Shown here piece after piece: positions 11,712 through 44,907 of a DNA stretch of 64,000 nt (position 1 is the first letter of the stretch; every line of letters begins with the position of its first letter). The stretch is from Escherichia coli (GTDB taxonomy: Bacteria > Pseudomonadota > Gammaproteobacteria > Enterobacterales > Enterobacteriaceae): NCBI RefSeq assembly GCF_003334355.1, contig NZ_QOWP01000011.1, one strand, 5' to 3'. The notes beneath the pieces are model-generated. The model saw nothing but the letters and a program-made list of their open reading frames with translations, was not told the origin of the DNA and made no database searches. The position numbers were made by a program, and so were the translations under genes.

Positions 11712-11738
11712 AAAAAATCCCGCCGCTGGCGGGATTTT
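11712..11738 (-). terminator. hns terminator (A-run/T-run flanked hairpin)
   Basis: atcccgcc-gctg-ggcgggat hairpin with plus-strand A-run before and T-run after; 24 nt downstream of hns stop on minus strand. Confidence 0.65.
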
Positions 11739-24822: not shown

Positions 24823-24830
24823 ACACAATA

Positions 24831-24857
24831 AGGGCTGACAGTTGTCAGCCCTTTTTC
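24831..24857 (+). terminator. opp operon terminator
   Basis: agggctgaca / tgtcagccct hairpin followed by ttttt. Confidence 0.7.
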
Positions 24858-26841: not shown

Positions 26842-27015
26842 ATGAAGCGGAGTAGAACGGAAGTGGGGCGCTGGCGCATGCAGCGTCAGGCTAGCCGACG
26901 TAAATCGCGTTGGCTTGAGGGGCAATCGCGCCGAAATATGCGTATCCACAGCATCAGGAAGTGCATTCTAAACAAACAGCGTAACTCGTTATTGTTTGCG
27001 ATCTACAATATCTAA
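26842..27015 (+). CDS. yciY: small basic protein
   Basis: 57-codon ORF from ATG 26842 (MKRSRTEVGRWRMQRQ...); matches recalled YciY. Confidence 0.6.
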   Translation: MKRSRTEVGRWRMQRQASRRKSRWLEGQSRRNMRIHSIRKCILNKQRNSLLFAIYNI

Positions 27016-27069
27016 ATGTACTGGGCACCATTGCGGTGCCCAATAAGTTTACTCCTCCGTCTTTAAACT

Positions 27070-28323
27070 CTATTTTTGCGCCGATTCTTTACTGTCAGCT
27101 TTCGTTTCTTGTTCATCGTTATCGCTGAAAATACCATGACCTGAGTTCAACAACATTGAAACGAGCATATCATTATTAATCTCTTCACCATTTAAAACTC
27201 GCGCCAGAATTTCGCTGCCAAACAGTTGCGGTGAGAGAATGATATCCGGATGTACCATCTTAATCTTATTCAGGTTTTTGCTATCACTGACGGCGAGAAC
27301 TGTTTTGACATCACTGCTCATATCTTTTGCCGAGAGTACAACAAACGCGTTATCTGCATCGTTATCACTCAGCGCCAGAATGGCCCGGCAACGATCGATT
27401 CCCGCTTTCTTTAATACAGAACTGTCATTACTGTCACCGGGGATAACATCAGCATTATCGCCTAAGCGTTGCTCAAGTTGCTTGATATCATCTTCAGGCA
27501 AGTTGCTGATAACCGTTACGTTTTGTCCGCGTTGATTCAGTTGCAGGATCGTATTGATGGCGAGAATCGAATGTCCGCAAACAATAAAATGATCTTTACG
27601 ATGCATTGTATGATTGTTTCCTTTTACAAGTTTGTTGAATCCCCCGCGGATAAGCGGACCAAAAATTGAGGTCATAGATGTGGCAAAAACGGTAATGCCG
27701 GAAATAATGACCGAAATAGTGAACAATCGTGCTGATTCAGAAACAGGGACAATATCGCCATAGCCGACGGTTGACATGGTTTCTATCGAAAAATAGAACG
27801 CGGTCATCAAACTTTCTATTCGCGGATTAAAACCTTCGCTTAAATAAAGCGCACCGTAGGTTGAGTAAAACAGTAATGTCGTGAAACTAATAAATGCAAA
27901 AATTGTCCCGGCTGCGGCGCTACTGTGGGAGAAGTCTTTGCGCAGTATCAGCAAAAACACCAGCGTAAAAATGCAAAATCCAATACTAAATTTCAGCCAG
28001 GGATAAAAATGCAGGGTGTAAATTAGCGCTATCAACAACAAAATGATACTGATTGCCCATGCGAGCTTTGCCCGGAACAGTAAGCCAATGGAGTTCAGGA
28101 CAAGAAAGACGCCGAGCATAAAGAGTGGGGCGTTTGCCAGCAAGGAGAGATCCAACTCTGAAAATGCTTTGATATGGAAAATATCAAGCAAATTGACCGA
28201 CATACCATAGATTGTTTTAAAAATAAGCAATCCATTTAAAAAGACGGCCAGCGCGAGAATGTCGTGCCGAAGGGTCACCCATAAATTTGTTGCTGTTTGT
28301 TTGAATGTAGCCCAGTGACTCAC
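27070..28323 (-). CDS. kch: voltage-gated K+ channel homolog
   Basis: GTG start at 28323 after AGAGG; TM helices and K+ selectivity filter TVGYGD; RCK-like C-terminus. Confidence 0.88.
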   Translation of the reverse strand: MSHWATFKQTATNLWVTLRHDILALAVFLNGLLIFKTIYGMSVNLLDIFHIKAFSELDLSLLANAPLFMLGVFLVLNSIGLLFRAKLAWAISIILLLIALIYTLHFYPWLKFSIGFCIFTLVFLLILRKDFSHSSAAAGTIFAFISFTTLLFYSTYGALYLSEGFNPRIESLMTAFYFSIETMSTVGYGDIVPVSESARLFTISVIISGITVFATSMTSIFGPLIRGGFNKLVKGNNHTMHRKDHFIVCGHSILAINTILQLNQRGQNVTVISNLPEDDIKQLEQRLGDNADVIPGDSNDSSVLKKAGIDRCRAILALSDNDADNAFVVLSAKDMSSDVKTVLAVSDSKNLNKIKMVHPDIILSPQLFGSEILARVLNGEEINNDMLVSMLLNSGHGIFSDNDEQETKADSKESAQK

Positions 28324-28622
28324 TGATACCTCTGTAACCACAATTTTGTTTAATTATCTTAGCGTGCACATTTTCTGAACATACATGCAGCGCGTGAATA
28401 TGTTAAACAATAGTAGATGACTTTATCCGCAGTAATCAAAGGATTTGAGCGAGCAACTGTACCTCAGGAAAGGTCATTTTTCCTGAATATGCTCACATCA
28501 TATAAAGAAATACAGATAAAGTTATTATCTGCTTGTGGTGGTGAATGCACTGACCGGCTATAAGGAAAGGCCAAACAAGAACACGGTTGCAAAAACCGTG
28601 CCCTTAAATATTGAATCTCTAT

Positions 28623-28919
28623 TCAGAACACTTTCTTAAATGGTTTCACTGAAACGTGTTCATAGACTCCTGCCGCTACGTACGGGTCAGCATCGGCCCA
28701 GGCCTGAGCTGCTTCCAGCGATTCAAATTCAGCAATAACGGTTGAGCCAGTAAATCCCGCAGCCCCTGGATCGTTACTGTCTACCGCTGGCATTGGACCA
28801 GCTGTCAACAAACGACCTTCATCATGCAGTAACTGTAAACGTGCTAAATGTGCCGGACGAACGGAAAGGCGTTTTTCGAGGCTATCAGCTTTGTCTTGAG
28901 CGTAAATAACATACAACAC
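28623..28919 (-). CDS. yciI: YciI-like protein
   Basis: GTG start at 28919 preceded by AAGGAG; 98 aa. Confidence 0.8.
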
Positions 28920-29075
28920 GGGCACAACTCCTTGTTCGGGAAAGTTGTAAAGTACGTTATTTGAAAGGGCGAAGATCTGCAACGGAAAGATGATGTCTTT
29001 GTTAAGGCCATGCATAAAGTAAGGGTAATTACGCCAAAAATGACATTTTCACTGATCCTGATCGTCTTGCCTTAT

Positions 29076-29094
29076 TGAATATGATTGCTATTTG
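29076..29094 (+). promoter_or_regulatory. putative Fur box in tonB promoter
   Basis: gaatatgattgctatttgc resembles Fur consensus gataatgataatcattatc, about 50 bp upstream of tonB ATG. Confidence 0.45.
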
Positions 29095-29142
29095 CATTTA
29101 AAATCGAGACCTGGTTTTTCTACTGAAATGATTATGACTTCA

Positions 29143-29862
29143 ATGACCCTTGATTTACCTCGCCGCTTCCCCTGGCCGACGTTACTTTCGGTCTGCATTC
29201 ATGGTGCTGTTGTGGCGGGTCTGCTCTATACCTCGGTACATCAGGTTATTGAACTACCTGCGCCTGCGCAGCCGATTTCTGTCACGATGGTTACGCCTGC
29301 TGATCTCGAACCGCCACAAGCCGTTCAGCCGCCACCGGAGCCGGTGGTAGAGCCAGAACCGGAACCTGAGCCGATCCCCGAACCGCCAAAAGAAGCACCG
29401 GTGGTCATTGAAAAGCCGAAGCCGAAACCTAAGCCAAAACCGAAGCCGGTGAAAAAGGTACAGGAGCAGCCAAAACGCGATGTCAAACCCGTAGAGTCGC
29501 GTCCGGCATCACCGTTTGAAAATACGGCACCGGCACGCCTGACATCAAGTACAGCAACGGCTGCAACCAGCAAGCCGGTTACCAGTGTGGCTTCAGGACC
29601 ACGCGCATTAAGCCGTAATCAGCCGCAGTATCCGGCACGAGCACAGGCATTGCGCATTGAAGGGCAGGTTAAAGTTAAATTTGACGTTACGCCGGATGGT
29701 CGCGTGGATAACGTACAAATCCTCTCAGCCAAGCCTGCGAACATGTTTGAGCGTGAGGTGAAAAATGCGATGCGCAGATGGCGTTATGAGCCGGGTAAGC
29801 CAGGCAGTGGGATTGTGGTGAATATCCTGTTTAAAATTAACGGCACCACCGAAATTCAGTAA
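29143..29862 (+). CDS. tonB: TonB energy transducer
   Basis: MTLDLPRRFPW start; (EP)n and (KP)n proline-rich repeats; 239 aa. Confidence 0.93.
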   Translation: MTLDLPRRFPWPTLLSVCIHGAVVAGLLYTSVHQVIELPAPAQPISVTMVTPADLEPPQAVQPPPEPVVEPEPEPEPIPEPPKEAPVVIEKPKPKPKPKPKPVKKVQEQPKRDVKPVESRPASPFENTAPARLTSSTATAATSKPVTSVASGPRALSRNQPQYPARAQALRIEGQVKVKFDVTPDGRVDNVQILSAKPANMFEREVKNAMRRWRYEPGKPGSGIVVNILFKINGTTEIQ

Positions 29863-29868
29863 GCAGAA

Positions 29869-29900
29869 AGTCAAAAGCCTCCGACCGGAGGCTTTTGACT
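29869..29900. terminator. bidirectional tonB/yciA terminator
   Basis: Perfect 15-bp inverted repeat agtcaaaagcctccg / cggaggcttttgact between convergent genes. Confidence 0.8.
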
Positions 29901-29901
29901 A

Positions 29902-30300
29902 TTACTCAACAGGTAAGGCGCGAGGTTTTCCTTCAGGATCAACCGCGACATACTTAAATAATGCTTCTGTCGCTTTATAGCGTTGCCCAATTGGTTCAGA
30001 CGCTACTTTTTTCACCCACACTTCAATATTAATGCTGACCGATGTCGTCCCTTTCTGGACACAGCGTGCATAGCAGCACACCACATCGCCGACCGCAACC
30101 GGCCGTAAGAAAGTCATTCCTTCAACCCGCACAGTCACTACGCGACCGTGGGCAATTTCTTTTGCCAGAATAGCGCCGCCAATATCCATTTGTGACATTA
30201 ACCAACCACCAAAGATGTCACCATTGGCATTGGTATCGGCGGGCATGGCTAAAGTACGTAAAACAAGATCGCCCTGAGGGACGTTATGTGTTGTAGACAT
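29902..30300 (-). CDS. yciA: acyl-CoA thioesterase (hotdog fold)
   Basis: 132-aa ORF recognised as YciA. Confidence 0.9.
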   Translation of the reverse strand: MSTTHNVPQGDLVLRTLAMPADTNANGDIFGGWLMSQMDIGGAILAKEIAHGRVVTVRVEGMTFLRPVAVGDVVCCYARCVQKGTTSVSINIEVWVKKVASEPIGQRYKATEALFKYVAVDPEGKPRALPVE

Positions 30301-30404
30301 GGTAAAACCGACTTAAAAGGAAAATCACAGGCGCGATGCTACTATGATTTTCCTGAGGAGAACAGAGGAGATACAGCGCCAGCCCCGAAGGACTGGCAGT
30401 CTGG

Positions 30405-30944
30405 TTAGGATTTATCTTCCTGCGGCATGTGGCGGTAGATATAGATACCGCTTAACAATGTGAAGATTAAGGTAAGGGCGGTCAGGCCAAAGACTTTAAA
30501 GTTGACCCAAATATTTTGCGGCAGCCAGAATGCGATGTAGATGTTTGCCAGACCGCAAAGGATAAAGAAAACAGCCCAGGCCAGATTCAGCTTCGACCAT
30601 ACCGGTTGCGGCAGCGTGAGTTCTTTACCCAGCATCCGCTGAATTAGCGGCTTTTTCATCACCCATTGGCTGACTAACAGGGCTCCCGCAAATAGAGCAT
30701 AAATGACTGTAACCTTCCATTTAATAAACTCATCATTGTGGAAGAACAGCGTCAAGCCACCGAAGACGACCACCAGAACAAAAGTGATCAGGGCCATCTT
30801 CTCAACCTTACGAAAGCGAACCCAGCTATAGATAAGCACAATCGCCGTGGCGACGATCAGCGCCGCAGTAGCCGCATAGATGTCATAAATCTTGTAAAAC
30901 GCGAAAAAGACAACCAGCGGTAAAAAATCAAGAAACTGCTTCAT
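30405..30944 (-). CDS. yciB: intracellular septation protein A
   Basis: 179-aa multi-TM ORF. Confidence 0.9.
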
Positions 30945-30973
30945 TTTACGATTCCGTAATCAAATGCTTAAGG

Positions 30974-31717
30974 TTATTGGCGAATCAACATATACAGGCG
31001 GAACAGATAGATGAGCAATATGGCTGAAATCAGGTTGCTCAAGGTGTTCGCCAGTACGGCACCAATTTCCGGGGTTAATGCGGCAAAAGAAGAGGCAAAA
31101 AGCAGCAACAGTGTTTTTGCCAGCAACCAGCTCAGTACTGCGGGTGCCACCAGACGCATATTCGCCCAAGTCAGCCGCATACTGCTACGCATCGAGGCAA
31201 AAACGCCCATTTTGTCCTGTACCAACATCACCGGTGCCAGGGCCAGTAAAATGGCCATGATAATTCCCGGAACGACCACCAGCATGATGCCAATCTGTAC
31301 TAAAAGGGTAGTCAGAAAAATCAGAATAAATAACTTTGGCAATATCGGCGCACTGGCACCAATAGCTCGCAGCGCACTGACTCTCTGACCCGCAGACACC
31401 AGCTGGATAATTAATATTACGCCTCCGGCGAGAATGGCGTTACCGATTAATCCTGAAAAAGTGGACGCCGCTGAAGCCTGCAGCAAAATTTGTTGCTGTT
31501 CCGGTGACATATTCTGAACCAGGTCGAACAACCCACTACTGCCGCTAACGGGCACGCCGTCATTGAGCTGCGCAAGCTGTGCATCACTGGGTGAGAAAAC
31601 ATGCCCTAACACCACTGTGATAAACGCACATAGCAACGATACCAACAGAATGGTCATAAATTGATTACGGAAGAAATTTCCGGTGTCACGGTATACGGAC
31701 TGCGCCGTGATAGACAT
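30974..31717 (-). CDS. yciC: UPF0259 membrane protein
   Basis: 247-aa multi-TM ORF. Confidence 0.88.
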
Positions 31718-32073
31718 GCACTCTCCTTGAGTTTTATGCAGGTGTTAATTAGCGGGCAATTGTACCCTGGTTAAGCCTCGGGTGGCAGCATCAGGTCTTG
31801 TATGGAAAAGCATATCTTTGTAAAGCGGAGGTAATTGCTGGCCTTCAGGCATGGGCAAATCGCGGCAAGTGGCGACCGAGTTAATATTTGCGTAGCGAAA
31901 ATATTTAAAAATTGATTTAAATCACATTAACCAGGATTCTCAATGCAACTTCTAAATTAATCCAGATCAATAAAGGGTGAATTATCATATGTAATGTGAT
32001 CTATGTAGGATCATTTGTTACTCCAATGTAGGTATATTCGTCACGTTTTTATAACCATAACGACGGAGCGGAT

Positions 32074-32712
32074 ATGAAAAAGTTAACAGTGGCGGCTTTG
32101 GCAGTAACAACTCTTCTCTCTGGCAGTGCCTTTGCGCATGAAGCAGGCGAATTTTTTATGCGTGCAGGTTCTGCAACCGTACGTCCAACAGAAGGTGCTG
32201 GTGGTACGTTAGGAAGTCTGGGTGGATTCAGCGTGACCAATAACACGCAACTGGGCCTTACGTTTACTTATATGGCGACCGACAACATTGGTGTGGAATT
32301 ACTGGCAGCGACGCCGTTCCGCCATAAAATCGGCACCCGGGCGACCGGCGATATTGCAACCGTTCATCATCTGCCACCAACACTGATGGCGCAGTGGTAT
32401 TTTGGTGATGCCAGCAGCAAATTCCGTCCTTACGTTGGGGCAGGTATTAACTACACCACCTTCTTTGATAATGGATTTAACGATCATGGCAAAGAGGCAG
32501 GGCTTTCCGATCTCAGTCTGAAAGATTCCTGGGGAGCTGCCGGGCAGGTGGGGGTTGATTATCTGATTAACCGTGACTGGTTGGTTAACATGTCAGTGTG
32601 GTACATGGATATCGATACCACCGCCAATTATAAGCTGGGCGGTGCACAGCAACACGATAGCGTACGCCTCGATCCGTGGGTGTTTATGCTCTCAGCAGGA
32701 TATCGTTTTTAA
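32074..32712 (+). CDS. ompW: outer membrane protein W
   Basis: 212-aa ORF, signal peptide MKKLTVAALAVTTLLSGSAFA, beta-barrel ending in F. Confidence 0.92.
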   Translation: MKKLTVAALAVTTLLSGSAFAHEAGEFFMRAGSATVRPTEGAGGTLGSLGGFSVTNNTQLGLTFTYMATDNIGVELLAATPFRHKIGTRATGDIATVHHLPPTLMAQWYFGDASSKFRPYVGAGINYTTFFDNGFNDHGKEAGLSDLSLKDSWGAAGQVGVDYLINRDWLVNMSVWYMDIDTTANYKLGGAQQHDSVRLDPWVFMLSAGYRF

Positions 32713-32720
32713 TTCCGCAC

Positions 32721-32747
32721 AAAAACGACCCCGTAATATACGGGGTC
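32721..32747 (-). terminator. yciE terminator
   Basis: gaccccg / cggggtc hairpin with plus-strand A-run (T-run on minus transcript). Confidence 0.6.
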
Positions 32748-32771
32748 AATAAGGACATGGTATAAAGGGTA

Positions 32772-33278
32772 TTATTTCTTCGCTTCTACGCCATCAGTTT
32801 CAGAGCGAATTAAAAATTTCTCAGTTGTTTGCGGAATATTCTGAATCAGCCAGTCGGCCATTTGCTTTTCCTCATTTAAAATCGCTTCGATGGTTGGAAT
32901 TGAAGCTGTATCACCGGCATTTTTTGCTGCTGCTAATAGTGAGGTGTAACAGGCGATTTCAAATTGCTCGAAGACATATCCGCTAATAGAGCCTTTGACT
33001 ATTTCATCAGAAGGGAATATACCACCGATTGACTGCCCAAGCGCAGCCATTTTACTCATGGAATCTTTAATGACTGAACGTGAAATGTCATTACGATCAA
33101 GAATAGTTTCCAGTTGAACAATCTGGTTTTTGGTTTCACTAAGATGTTGTTCAATACGAGCGCGTAGTTCAGGATAATTATCTATACGGCTGGCCATGGA
33201 TTCAAGCATAGATTCGGCTTGCTTTTCCATTGCGTGGGCGTCACGTAACCAGTCATGATAATGTTCAATACGATTCAT
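32772..33278 (-). CDS. yciE: ferritin-like stress protein (DUF892)
   Basis: 168-aa ORF recognised as YciE. Confidence 0.9.
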   Translation of the reverse strand: MNRIEHYHDWLRDAHAMEKQAESMLESMASRIDNYPELRARIEQHLSETKNQIVQLETILDRNDISRSVIKDSMSKMAALGQSIGGIFPSDEIVKGSISGYVFEQFEIACYTSLLAAAKNAGDTASIPTIEAILNEEKQMADWLIQNIPQTTEKFLIRSETDGVEAKK

Positions 33279-41021: not shown

Positions 41022-41048
41022 AAAAAAAAGCCCGCTCATTAGGCGGGC
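41022..41048 (-). terminator. trp attenuator (3:4 terminator hairpin)
   Basis: Minus-strand AGCCCGCCTAATGAGCGGGCT followed by T8. Confidence 0.85.
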
Positions 41049-41091
41049 TGGGTATCTGATTGCTTTACGCATGGTGAATACACTGCCCGTT

Positions 41092-41136
41092 TCAGGAAGT
41101 GCGCCACCAACCTTTCAGTACGAAAATTGCTTTCAT
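41092..41136 (-). CDS. trpL: trp leader peptide
   Basis: ATG at 41136; 14 codons [14 protein letters not shown] with tandem Trp codons at 41104-41109. Confidence 0.85.
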
Positions 41137-42799: not shown

Positions 42800-44695
42800 A
42801 TGGCAGGGAAGTTTCGCTGCATTTTGCTGTTGATAGCAGGGCTGTTTGTATCATCTCTAAGTTATGCAGAAAACACGGAGATCCCTTCTTATGAAGAAGG
42901 GATCTCGCTCTTTGATGTTGAAGCCACTCTGCAACCAGATGGGGTGCTCGACATCAAAGAAAATATTCATTTTCAGGCGCGAAATCAGCAGATTAAGCAC
43001 GGCTTTTATCGTGATTTACCACGACTCTGGATGCAGCCTGATGGGGACGCTGCACTGCTGAACTATCATATTGTTGGCGTCACCCGTGATGGTATTCCTG
43101 AACCCTGGCATCTTGACTGGCATATCGGGTTAATGAGTATTGTCGTGGGCGATAAACAACGTTTCTTGCCTCAAGGCGACTATCATTATCAAATTCATTA
43201 TCAGGTTAAAAATGCTTTCCTGCGTGAGGGGGATTCTGATCTGCTAATCTGGAACGTGACCGGTAACCACTGGCCGTTTGAAATTTATAAGACCCGTTTT
43301 TCTCTCCAGTTCTCTAATATTGCGGGTAATCCATTTAGCGAAATCGATCTCTTTACCGGAGAAGAGGGCGACACATATCGTAATGGCCGCATCCTTGAGG
43401 ACGGAAGAATTGAATCCCGCGATCCGTTTTATCGTGAAGATTTCACGGTCCTCTACCGCTGGCCTCACGCTTTACTTAGCAATGCCTCGGCTCCGCAAAC
43501 GACGAATATTTTCAGCCATCTTCTTTTACCCTCCACGTCATCGTTGTTAATTTGGTTTCCGTGTCTGTTCCTGGTTTGTGGATGGTTATATCTCTGGAAG
43601 CGCAGGCCGCAATTTACGCCGGTAGATGTGATTGAAACCGATGTCATTCCGCCAGATTACACGCCCGGCATGTTACGTCTCGATGCGAAGCTAGTTTACG
43701 ACGATAAAGGTTTTTGTGCCGATATCGTAAATCTGATTGTGAAAGGAAAAATTCATCTGGAAGATCAGTCTGACAAGAACCAGCAAATCCTGATTCGTGT
43801 TAATGAAGGCGCGACCAGAAATAATGCGGTATTACTGCCCGCAGAGCAGTTATTACTGGAAGCGTTATTTCGTAAAGGCGATAAGGTCGTTCTTACGGGG
43901 AGACGCAACAGAGTCTTACGCAGGGCATTTTTACGGATGCAGAAATTTTATCTGCCGCGTAAAAAGTCTTCGTTTTACCGGTCTGATACTTTTTTGCAAT
44001 GGGGTGGACTGGCAATATTGGCGGTCATTCTTTACGGTAACTTGAGTCCTGTAGGCTGGGCAGGAATGAGTCTGGTGGGCGATATGTTTATTATGATCTG
44101 CTGGATTATTCCTTTTTTATTTTGTTCCCTTGAGCTTTTGTTTGCCCGCGATGATGACAAGCCTTGCGTTAATCGTGTAATCATCACTTTGTTTTTACCA
44201 CTGATTTGTTCAGGCGTGGCCTTCTATTCTCTCTACATCAATGTCGGAGATGTATTCTTTTACTGGTATATGCCAGCGGGTTATTTTACCGCTGTTTTCC
44301 TGACCGGTTATCTCACTGGCATGGGGTATATTTTTCTGCCAAAGTTTACCCAAACTGGACAGCAACGTTATGCCCACGGTGAAGCTATCGTTAACTATCT
44401 TGCGCGTAAAGAGGCGGCAACACACAGTGGGCGGCGTCGGAAAGGGGAAACACGGAAACTGGATTATGCGTTGCTAGGTTGGGCGGTCTCGGCAAACCTT
44501 GGCAGAGAATGGGCAGCACGTATCACCCCATCACTCACAGCGGCTGTTCGCGCCCCGGAAATTGCCCGTAGCGGCGTTTTATTCTCATTACAGACGCACC
44601 TAAGTTGCGGGGCCTATACCAGTTTGTTGGGGCGAAGTTATTCCGGTGGTGGTGCTGGCGGCGGCGCGGGTGGCGGAGGCGGTGGTGGCTGGTAA
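42800..44695 (+). CDS. yciQ: DUF2207-family membrane protein
   Basis: 631-aa ORF with signal peptide, central TM segments and C-terminal Gly-rich tail. Confidence 0.85.
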   Translation: MAGKFRCILLLIAGLFVSSLSYAENTEIPSYEEGISLFDVEATLQPDGVLDIKENIHFQARNQQIKHGFYRDLPRLWMQPDGDAALLNYHIVGVTRDGIPEPWHLDWHIGLMSIVVGDKQRFLPQGDYHYQIHYQVKNAFLREGDSDLLIWNVTGNHWPFEIYKTRFSLQFSNIAGNPFSEIDLFTGEEGDTYRNGRILEDGRIESRDPFYREDFTVLYRWPHALLSNASAPQTTNIFSHLLLPSTSSLLIWFPCLFLVCGWLYLWKRRPQFTPVDVIETDVIPPDYTPGMLRLDAKLVYDDKGFCADIVNLIVKGKIHLEDQSDKNQQILIRVNEGATRNNAVLLPAEQLLLEALFRKGDKVVLTGRRNRVLRRAFLRMQKFYLPRKKSSFYRSDTFLQWGGLAILAVILYGNLSPVGWAGMSLVGDMFIMICWIIPFLFCSLELLFARDDDKPCVNRVIITLFLPLICSGVAFYSLYINVGDVFFYWYMPAGYFTAVFLTGYLTGMGYIFLPKFTQTGQQRYAHGEAIVNYLARKEAATHSGRRRKGETRKLDYALLGWAVSANLGREWAARITPSLTAAVRAPEIARSGVLFSLQTHLSCGAYTSLLGRSYSGGGAGGGAGGGGGGGW

Positions 44696-44907
44696 TTAAG
44701 CTGATGTTAATCGAAACAAGCTTTAACCATAAAGATAGTGTAGTATGTTGCGCCTCAAAGCCAGGCCAGTTAAAACGTCGAGTCGTTTACTTAAGGCCTG
44801 AGGAGTTCAAACAGACTTTACTATCAGTGAGTCAGATGTAAGTTCTGACTCACTGTTGCACAAAAGCATATCAGACGCCTGGGAAGGCGACACCAAAAGG
44901 AAGCTCT

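Follow-up and report, generated by a model that had tools for sequence, protein, structure and literature searches.

What does a perfect palindrome do in the narrow space between two genes that are transcribed towards each other? The question is raised by the junction of tonB and yciA in Escherichia coli, examined here within a stretch of 64,000 nucleotides (the window, whose first letter is position 1). It has a history: in 1985, Postle and Good published a paper whose title names a bidirectional rho-independent terminator between tonB and an opposing gene (Postle and Good, 1985, Cell 41:577-585). As far as that title goes, the opposing gene corresponds to what is now annotated as yciA, and their terminator has the same locus and the same sequence as the palindrome, with no difference in kind. 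The element is therefore the already known tonB-yciA bidirectional terminator, and positions 29869-29900 very probably serve as a shared intrinsic (Rho-independent) terminator for tonB on the + strand and for yciC-yciB-yciA on the - strand. In what follows, anatomy and conservation come from the present analysis and function from publications, while we infer the positions of transcript release, the protection of the 3′ ends and the leakiness. The present additions are limited to comparative and population detail and the discovery value is small; the case is that of a genuine functional element which can be recognised from its sequence alone.

The setting is well defined. With a 1-kb query around the site, both tonB and yciA are annotated under the match in 5,423 of 5,426 complete E. 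coli genomes, in agreement with the gene names given by the initial annotation, made from the letters of the DNA. Positions 28954-30454 are identical to 1310900-1312400 of the MG1655 chromosome (NC_000913.3), so that near tonB a window position plus 1,281,946 gives the MG1655 coordinate. This conversion is local: the window as a whole is 99.1-99.6% identical to NC_000913.3, and fully identical only around tonB. A 1.2-kb IS5 element found between ychE and oppA in MG1655 is missing from the window (site at about 18750). Between the tonB and yciA stop codons, which were mapped to either side of the palindrome just as had been claimed, there are 39 nt, of which the palindrome takes up 32 (Table 1).

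Table 1. Positions in the window of the tonB/yciA junction, its parts and related sites.
Feature	Position	Strand	Remarks
tonB coding sequence	29143..29862	+	annotated start; longest ORF from 29092
tonB stop codon TAA	29860-29862	+	6 nt to outer stem, 14 nt to core stem
GCAGAA on + strand, UUCUGC in yciA-sense RNA	29863..29868	-	additional U-rich tail
Whole palindrome	29869..29900	both	15+2+15; 14-bp stem and 4-nt loop as RNA
AGTCAAAA (+ strand letters)	29869..29876	-	template of the yciA-sense U-tract UUUUGACU
Core G+C hairpin GCCTCC-GACC-GGAGGC	29877..29892	both	part kept across genera
Core stem arms	29877-29882 and 29887-29892		loop 29883-29886
TTTTGACT	29893..29900	+	tonB-sense U-tract (UUUUGACU) and 3′ arm of outer stem
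yciA stop codon	29902-29904	-	1 nt to outer stem, 9 nt to core stem
yciA coding sequence	29902..30300	-	final gene of co-directional yciC-yciB-yciA
Published Rho-termination region (NC_000913.3 1311968)	30022	+	antisense to yciA, about 120 nt past the hairpin
Other junction hairpin sites in the window	11714-11738, 24830-24853, 48443-48468, 61046-61071		

The inverted repeat reads AGTCAAAAGCCTCCG-AC-CGGAGGCTTTTGACT, with two arms of 15 nt (29869-29883 and 29886-29900) that are 100% complementary and 2 nt apart. When spacers of 0-8 nt are scanned, the 64-kb window holds no longer perfect inverted repeat. When the window was shuffled 200 times with its dinucleotides preserved, no arm of 15 bp arose (mode 9, maximum 14), and the perfect palindrome first reported from the sequence, exact in letters and coordinates, thus far exceeds chance. 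The accompanying claim that both strands form the same stem-loop is right as well, except in one detail: because a loop of 2 nt is impossible in RNA, either transcript folds instead into a stem of 14 bp with a loop of 4 nt, GACC in the tonB sense vs GGUC in the yciA sense. The hairpin has a free energy of -24.5 kcal/mol in the tonB sense and -24.0 kcal/mol in the yciA sense, with z-scores against shuffles of -5.7 to -7.3. Adding 15-20 nt of flank leaves it as the fold of lowest energy on either transcript (-24.5 and -28.4 kcal/mol, with z-scores of -5.7 and -6.9).

Other inverted repeats occur in the window. The yciQ coding sequence contains a perfect 13-bp palindrome at 42878-42906 (GAGATCCCTTCTTATGAAGAAGGGATCTC), which has no U-tract and lies some 78 nt past the annotated start, just after an apparent signal peptide; arms of at least 13 bp were found in 2 of the 200 window shuffles. 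Two perfect 12-bp repeats, CAGTGAGTCAGA-7 nt-TCTGACTCACTG between yciQ and rluB (44825-44855) and CGGATGATTTGC-6 nt-GCAAATCATCCG just downstream of yciT (61607-61636), are probably terminators or leader structures. The - strand has four RtT repeats interspersed with two tRNA genes at 5961-6875, tyrT and tyrV by comparison with MG1655. Rfam finds the trp leader at 41022-41115 and the sRNA STnc180 at 53555-53757, upstream of acnA; it gives no match with E ≤ 1 in 27000-33000, and in the search of the whole window at the gathering threshold it has none at the palindrome.

Within the palindrome, two layers can be distinguished. The inner one is a core of 6 bp, GCCTCC/GGAGGC, in which five of the six pairs are G-C and which closes a 4-nt loop; the motif has a single copy in the window. 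On both transcripts this core is preceded by AAAA and followed by UUUU, and it sits just past the stop codons, 14 nt from that of tonB and 9 nt from that of yciA. A G+C-rich stem-loop of this kind on both strands, close behind the genes, is what is found at intrinsic terminators, and the arrangement AAAA-stem-TTTT within a perfect palindrome, together with the convergent geometry of the genes, is what a bidirectional one should have. The outer layer, AGUC...GACU, lengthens the A/U pairing to the full 14-bp stem and closes it with G-C pairs. The core stem pairs GGAGG, a perfect Shine-Dalgarno sequence, with CCUCC, its anti-Shine-Dalgarno counterpart, in both transcripts (29877-29892), which is probably a coincidence of a G+C-rich stem.

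The two directions share the U-tract too. By its symmetry, the element gives GGAGGC-UUUUGACU past the core in both RNAs, and the same + strand letters at 29869..29876 that template the yciA-sense tract are the A-tract and the 5′ arm of the outer stem in tonB-sense RNA. The initial annotation was thus correct to see a U-tract on the tonB side, but not in making that side its sole location. In UUUUGACU, five of eight residues are U, four of them consecutive, on both strands; most relatives have 6-8 of 8. Beyond the palindrome the two transcripts part company, yciA-sense RNA running on as the U-rich UUCUGCUUA, which on the DNA lies on the tonB-proximal side, and tonB-sense RNA as AUUACUCAAC. A U-rich tail past the full 14-bp stem is therefore present in the yciA direction only. 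This flank difference, UUCUGCUUA vs AUUACUCAAC, is the reason why a scan with a terminator consensus called the - strand alone, with the full stem and the tail TTCTGCTTAC; terminator-like sites in the region were not more frequent in that scan than in shuffles. A score of the d'Aubenton-Carafa type, to which no weight is given here, came to +7 and +10 for the core, one value per strand.

How would such an element work? On either strand, RNA polymerase would transcribe AAAA-GCCUCC-loop-GGAGGC-UUUUGACU, and the 6-bp core hairpin would fold in the exit channel while a weak rU:dA hybrid occupies the active site. By the general rule, release should then follow about 7-9 nt past the core stem, which puts the predicted mRNA 3′ ends at about 29899-29901 for tonB and at about 29868-29870 for yciCBA. 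One hairpin can serve both genes because the A-tract of one strand templates the U-tract of the other. After release, the A-tract and AGUC would pair with UUUU-GACU, so that both mRNAs would end in a nearly blunt 14-bp hairpin, and this terminal structure should shield them from 3′ exonucleases.

Termination at this site is probably leaky, moderate rather than complete, since the run of four U is short, the stop codons are 9-14 nt off, a Rho-dependent region lies downstream, and the published strength is moderate. In a study of the tR2 terminator, a terminating ribosome repressed termination in vivo at stop distances like these: a rise was reported from nearly zero, with the stop only a few bp away, to about 0.9 past 30 bp, and the stated requirement was 10-15 nt of free RNA. 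Some read-through would be handled by Rho. The downstream region, taken from supplementary file 2 of Adams et al. (2021), is a bicyclomycin-sensitive one on the + strand, listed at 1311968; its Rho score is 3.3, and reads upstream/downstream were 64/22 in untreated cells vs 59/67 with bicyclomycin. Rho at about 30022 clears either read-through from tonB or antisense transcription within yciA, and the region is a possible back-up for read-through in the tonB direction. In the same work, neither strand has a curated Term-seq 3′ end at 13117xx-13119xx, which may reflect low expression in the media used. The data of SMRT-Cappable-seq, of TERMITe and of a preprint on collision-dependent termination likewise contain no entries for a tonB/yciA 3′ end.

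Measurements of function exist for the tonB terminator, which is ranked weak to moderate. It was assayed in vivo by Cambray et al. (2013, NAR 41:5139), and there a version with 30 nt of native context beat the minimal hairpin with its U-tail, the minimal version being dropped for too low an efficiency. It has been employed in cloning vectors and is catalogued as a synthetic-biology part of moderate strength. In R. palustris it brought read-through down by 75%; the paper on that work quotes Chen et al. (2013) for rrnC being 25 times stronger in E. coli. A search of a plasmid collection for the terminator part returned 12 records, all of them chromosomal tonB-yciA segments or mislabelled chromosomes. 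The anatomy, the conservation set out below, the title of 1985 and these in vivo data together bear out the reading of the locus as a bidirectional terminator, the two-way function coming from the literature. The further description of it as compact holds for its bidirectional design, but not if it is taken to mean efficient, given the moderate published ranking and the Rho region downstream.

Which parts of the palindrome matter most can be judged from its relatives. Eighty loci from other species were gathered by means of YciA, and in 53 of them tonB is adjacent and convergent to yciA. The exact GCCTCC/GGAGGC core stands at the junction in 37 of these 53 enterobacterial species, which include Escherichia, part of Citrobacter, Enterobacter, Kosakonia, Lelliottia, Leclercia and Silvania. 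All 38 aligned sequences have the same core stem, and their loops are free in sequence and 3-6 nt long; as the 37 sequences were picked by the pattern GCCTC[AC]...[GT]GAGGC, the invariance of the core comes partly from selection. The flanks mirror each other: on the A-rich side 5-8 of 8 residues are A in 36 species, Kosakonia oryziphila being the exception with 3 of 8, and on the T-rich side 5-8 of 8 are T among all 37 core-bearing species. A constant stem with a free loop and mirrored A/T tracts is what one would expect of an intrinsic terminator that works in both directions. It is the 6-bp GCCUCC/GGAGGC core with its A/U flanks that is conserved as the functional unit, not the whole 15-bp palindrome.

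The outer pairs vary in a different way. In the alignment 7 pairs are constant and 6 outer pairs have changed on both sides; the covariation score was reached by none of 500 shuffles, and sliding the pairing partners lowers the paired fraction from 90% to 46-71%. The AGTC/GACT extension is found in Escherichia only. E. whittamii has the outer pairs AATC/GATT, both sides changed, and Escherichia sp. E1V33 is a one-sided intermediate. Such symmetry could stem from selection on pairing or from template-switch mutation in quasi-palindromes. For the core, no compensated intermediate was found among the 53 junctions, 37 being identical and 16 replaced or different. At these 16 the hairpins bear no relation to it (Salmonella, the C. 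freundii group), or there is hardly any spacer (Mangrovibacter).

Some of the departures deserve a description of their own. In Salmonella enterica subsp. diarizonae and arizonae (positions 2903-2971 of loci L011 and L013), the yciA/tonB spacer is 69 nt long and contains a CCGCCAGC...GCTGGCGG stem whose loop is long and which lacks a T-tract; there is therefore no canonical intrinsic terminator at this orthologous junction. Escherichia albertii (locus L005, 2900-4337) has a 1.4-kb insert between yciA and tonB with a 356-aa ORF on the tonB strand; the GCCTCC hairpin is missing and the C-terminus of YciA is different. In Kluyvera, Klebsiella, Raoultella and Pluralibacter, the convergent neighbour of yciA is not tonB (at about 2900-3470 of the gathered loci; L017, L025, L041, L051, L059, L063, L074-L081 and similar). 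In Raoultella ornithinolytica (L080) this neighbour encodes a membrane-like protein of 178 aa, for which an NCBIfam search gave no family, and the junction has a different shared hairpin, GCCCGG-loop-CCGGGC.

Within E. coli itself, a 41-nt query spanning the palindrome matched 3,637 records identically and 1,787 with one base off, so that about a third of the genomes differ by one base in this query. In all seven one-base variants sampled, the change is C to T at 29899, which turns GACT into GATT; none of the E. coli sequences inspected varies in the core. It follows from the 29899 variants that the perfect 15 bp are not universal even within the species. The substitution keeps a G-U pair in tonB-sense RNA and makes an A-C mismatch in yciA-sense RNA. 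Has the outer 8-bp extension (AGUCAAAA/UUUUGACU) then been selected for pairing itself, either to serve as an ‘outer’ terminator at a second stage or to give the 3′ end a blunt cap? The idea is a tentative one, and somewhat doubtful. If it were true, 29899 C to T would be a direction-specific modifier that weakens the yciCBA side only, and this common natural allele offers a ready test of a direction-specific contribution of the outer stem. The strain E. coli N64 presents another kind of change (L086, 1559-2277): an IS200C has inserted exactly at the palindrome boundary 29900/29901, between TTTTGATT and ATTACTCAAC, so that yciA is split from the shared hairpin and adjoins a CCTCCGGC...GCCGGAGG hairpin carried by the IS200C.

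The comparative data also bear on two readings in which the palindrome would not act through RNA folding at a terminator. It might act at the level of DNA, either as an operator bound by a dimeric protein or as a cruciform; the perfect 15-bp symmetry would suit either, and as single-stranded DNA the hairpin has -15 kcal/mol with a z-score of about -7. Its centre, however, varies among species in sequence and in length (3-6 nt) while the arms stay complementary, which fits a hairpin of RNA or DNA but not a protein site of fixed spacing, and the element lies at the 3′ ends of both genes with no promoter-like site adjoining. With a spacer length that differs among species, this explanation is highly improbable and was rejected. 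The palindrome could also be one copy of a dispersed repeat (REP-like, or the end of a mobile element) or a product of chance, and the junction of the Citrobacter freundii group does have REP-like sequences of the GCCGGATG type. An 86-nt query, however, finds a median of one place per E. coli genome; the palindromic 41-nt query finds two, presumably both strands of one site. The window has no second copy of the motif, related loci have one each, in every case at this junction, there is no Rfam match, and, as noted above, a 15-bp arm was not reached in any shuffle. Dispersed repeats were rejected on the ground of one locus per genome, and repeat and chance alike have a probability close to nil.

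More substantial are the two alternatives that accept an effect on transcripts and attribute it otherwise. In the one, the hairpin would mainly pause RNA polymerase, and release would come from head-on or trailing collisions between polymerases on tonB and on yciCBA. Expression of tonB is normally low, owing to repression by Fur, and at such a level collisions should be rare. The idea gains weight from a preprint of the Liu laboratory on bidirectional terminators of a class that is widespread where E. coli genes converge; there, termination at the ynaJ-uspE site was just 9% and 39% in one direction at a time and was increased by collisions; the short U-tract and moderate measured strength of the tonB/yciA site, and its predicted mRNA 3′ ends that overlap across the palindrome, would fit this pattern. 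Yet tonB/yciA appears neither in the text of that preprint nor in its supplement, the title of 1985 has both rho-independent and bidirectional, and the tonB terminator is active in one-directional reporters, where convergent transcription does not take place. Because the part works in such reporters, collisions are not required. They may contribute to termination, but as the main cause of release they are unlikely. The other alternative makes the hairpin a stabiliser of 3′ ends: polymerase would read through, Rho would terminate transcription downstream, and exonucleases would trim the RNA back to the 14-bp barrier. The Rho-dependent region some 120 nt downstream on the + strand speaks for it, as do the stem of -24 kcal/mol, nearly flush with the predicted 3′ ends, and the compensatory changes in an outer stem that termination itself does not need. 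Against it, A- and T-tracts flank the core on both sides in 37 species, which is the signature of intrinsic termination; the reporters show lower downstream expression and not merely RNA ends; and the 1985 title, again, has ‘rho-independent’. As a full account it is quite improbable. The barrier and terminator roles are nonetheless compatible, and protection of the 3′ ends as a second function is not exclusive of an intrinsic terminator acting in both directions.

How does this terminator compare with others? Its own neighbourhood provides a first scale. Eleven convergent junctions were examined in the window, and a single shared hairpin stands between the stops in eight of them (oppF/yciU, yciY/kch, tonB/yciA, ompW/yciE, rluB/btuR, sohB/yciN, acnA/ribA and yciH/osmB); galU/hns has two. 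The tonB/yciA hairpin is the longest and most perfect member of what is, among these 11, a common class. The shared hairpins often have mirrored A/T tracts. Those of oppF/yciU and galU/hns read AAGGGCTGACAGTTGTCAGCCCTT and AAAATCCCGCCGCTGGCGGGATTTT, respectively, and a 13-bp palindrome is found at yciH/osmB.

Among published systems, Cambray et al. (2013) placed tonB with five other terminators that have a nested ‘outer’ stem, which takes in part of the U-tail and has closing G-C pairs. Their idea of an inner and an outer terminator acting in sequence suits the yciA direction, where a U-rich tail follows the full stem, and suits the tonB direction less, the tail there being AUUACUCAAC. The closest relatives in design are the hypersymmetric or bidirectional terminators (Wright, Kumar and Hayward, 1992, EMBO J 11:1957), among them that of Tn10 tetA-orfL (Schollmeier et al., 1985). 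Going by the titles of these papers, the class would share with tonB/yciA a G+C hairpin between an A-tract and a U-tract, so that a terminator is encoded on both strands. The symmetry of tonB/yciA reaches past the core stem, and it would differ from the class in that its AGUC/GACU extension has G-C and C-G pairs at its end and in that only four U follow the core. The overlapping bidirectional terminators (Ju, Li and Liu, 2019; Wang et al., preprint 2022) likewise have one hairpin per convergent pair, and the predicted 3′ ends of tonB and yciA overlap as theirs do. In the preprint, the class is described as unlike intrinsic terminators and as requiring collisions, whereas tonB/yciA has a canonical hairpin and a U-run on both strands and is active in one-directional reporters.
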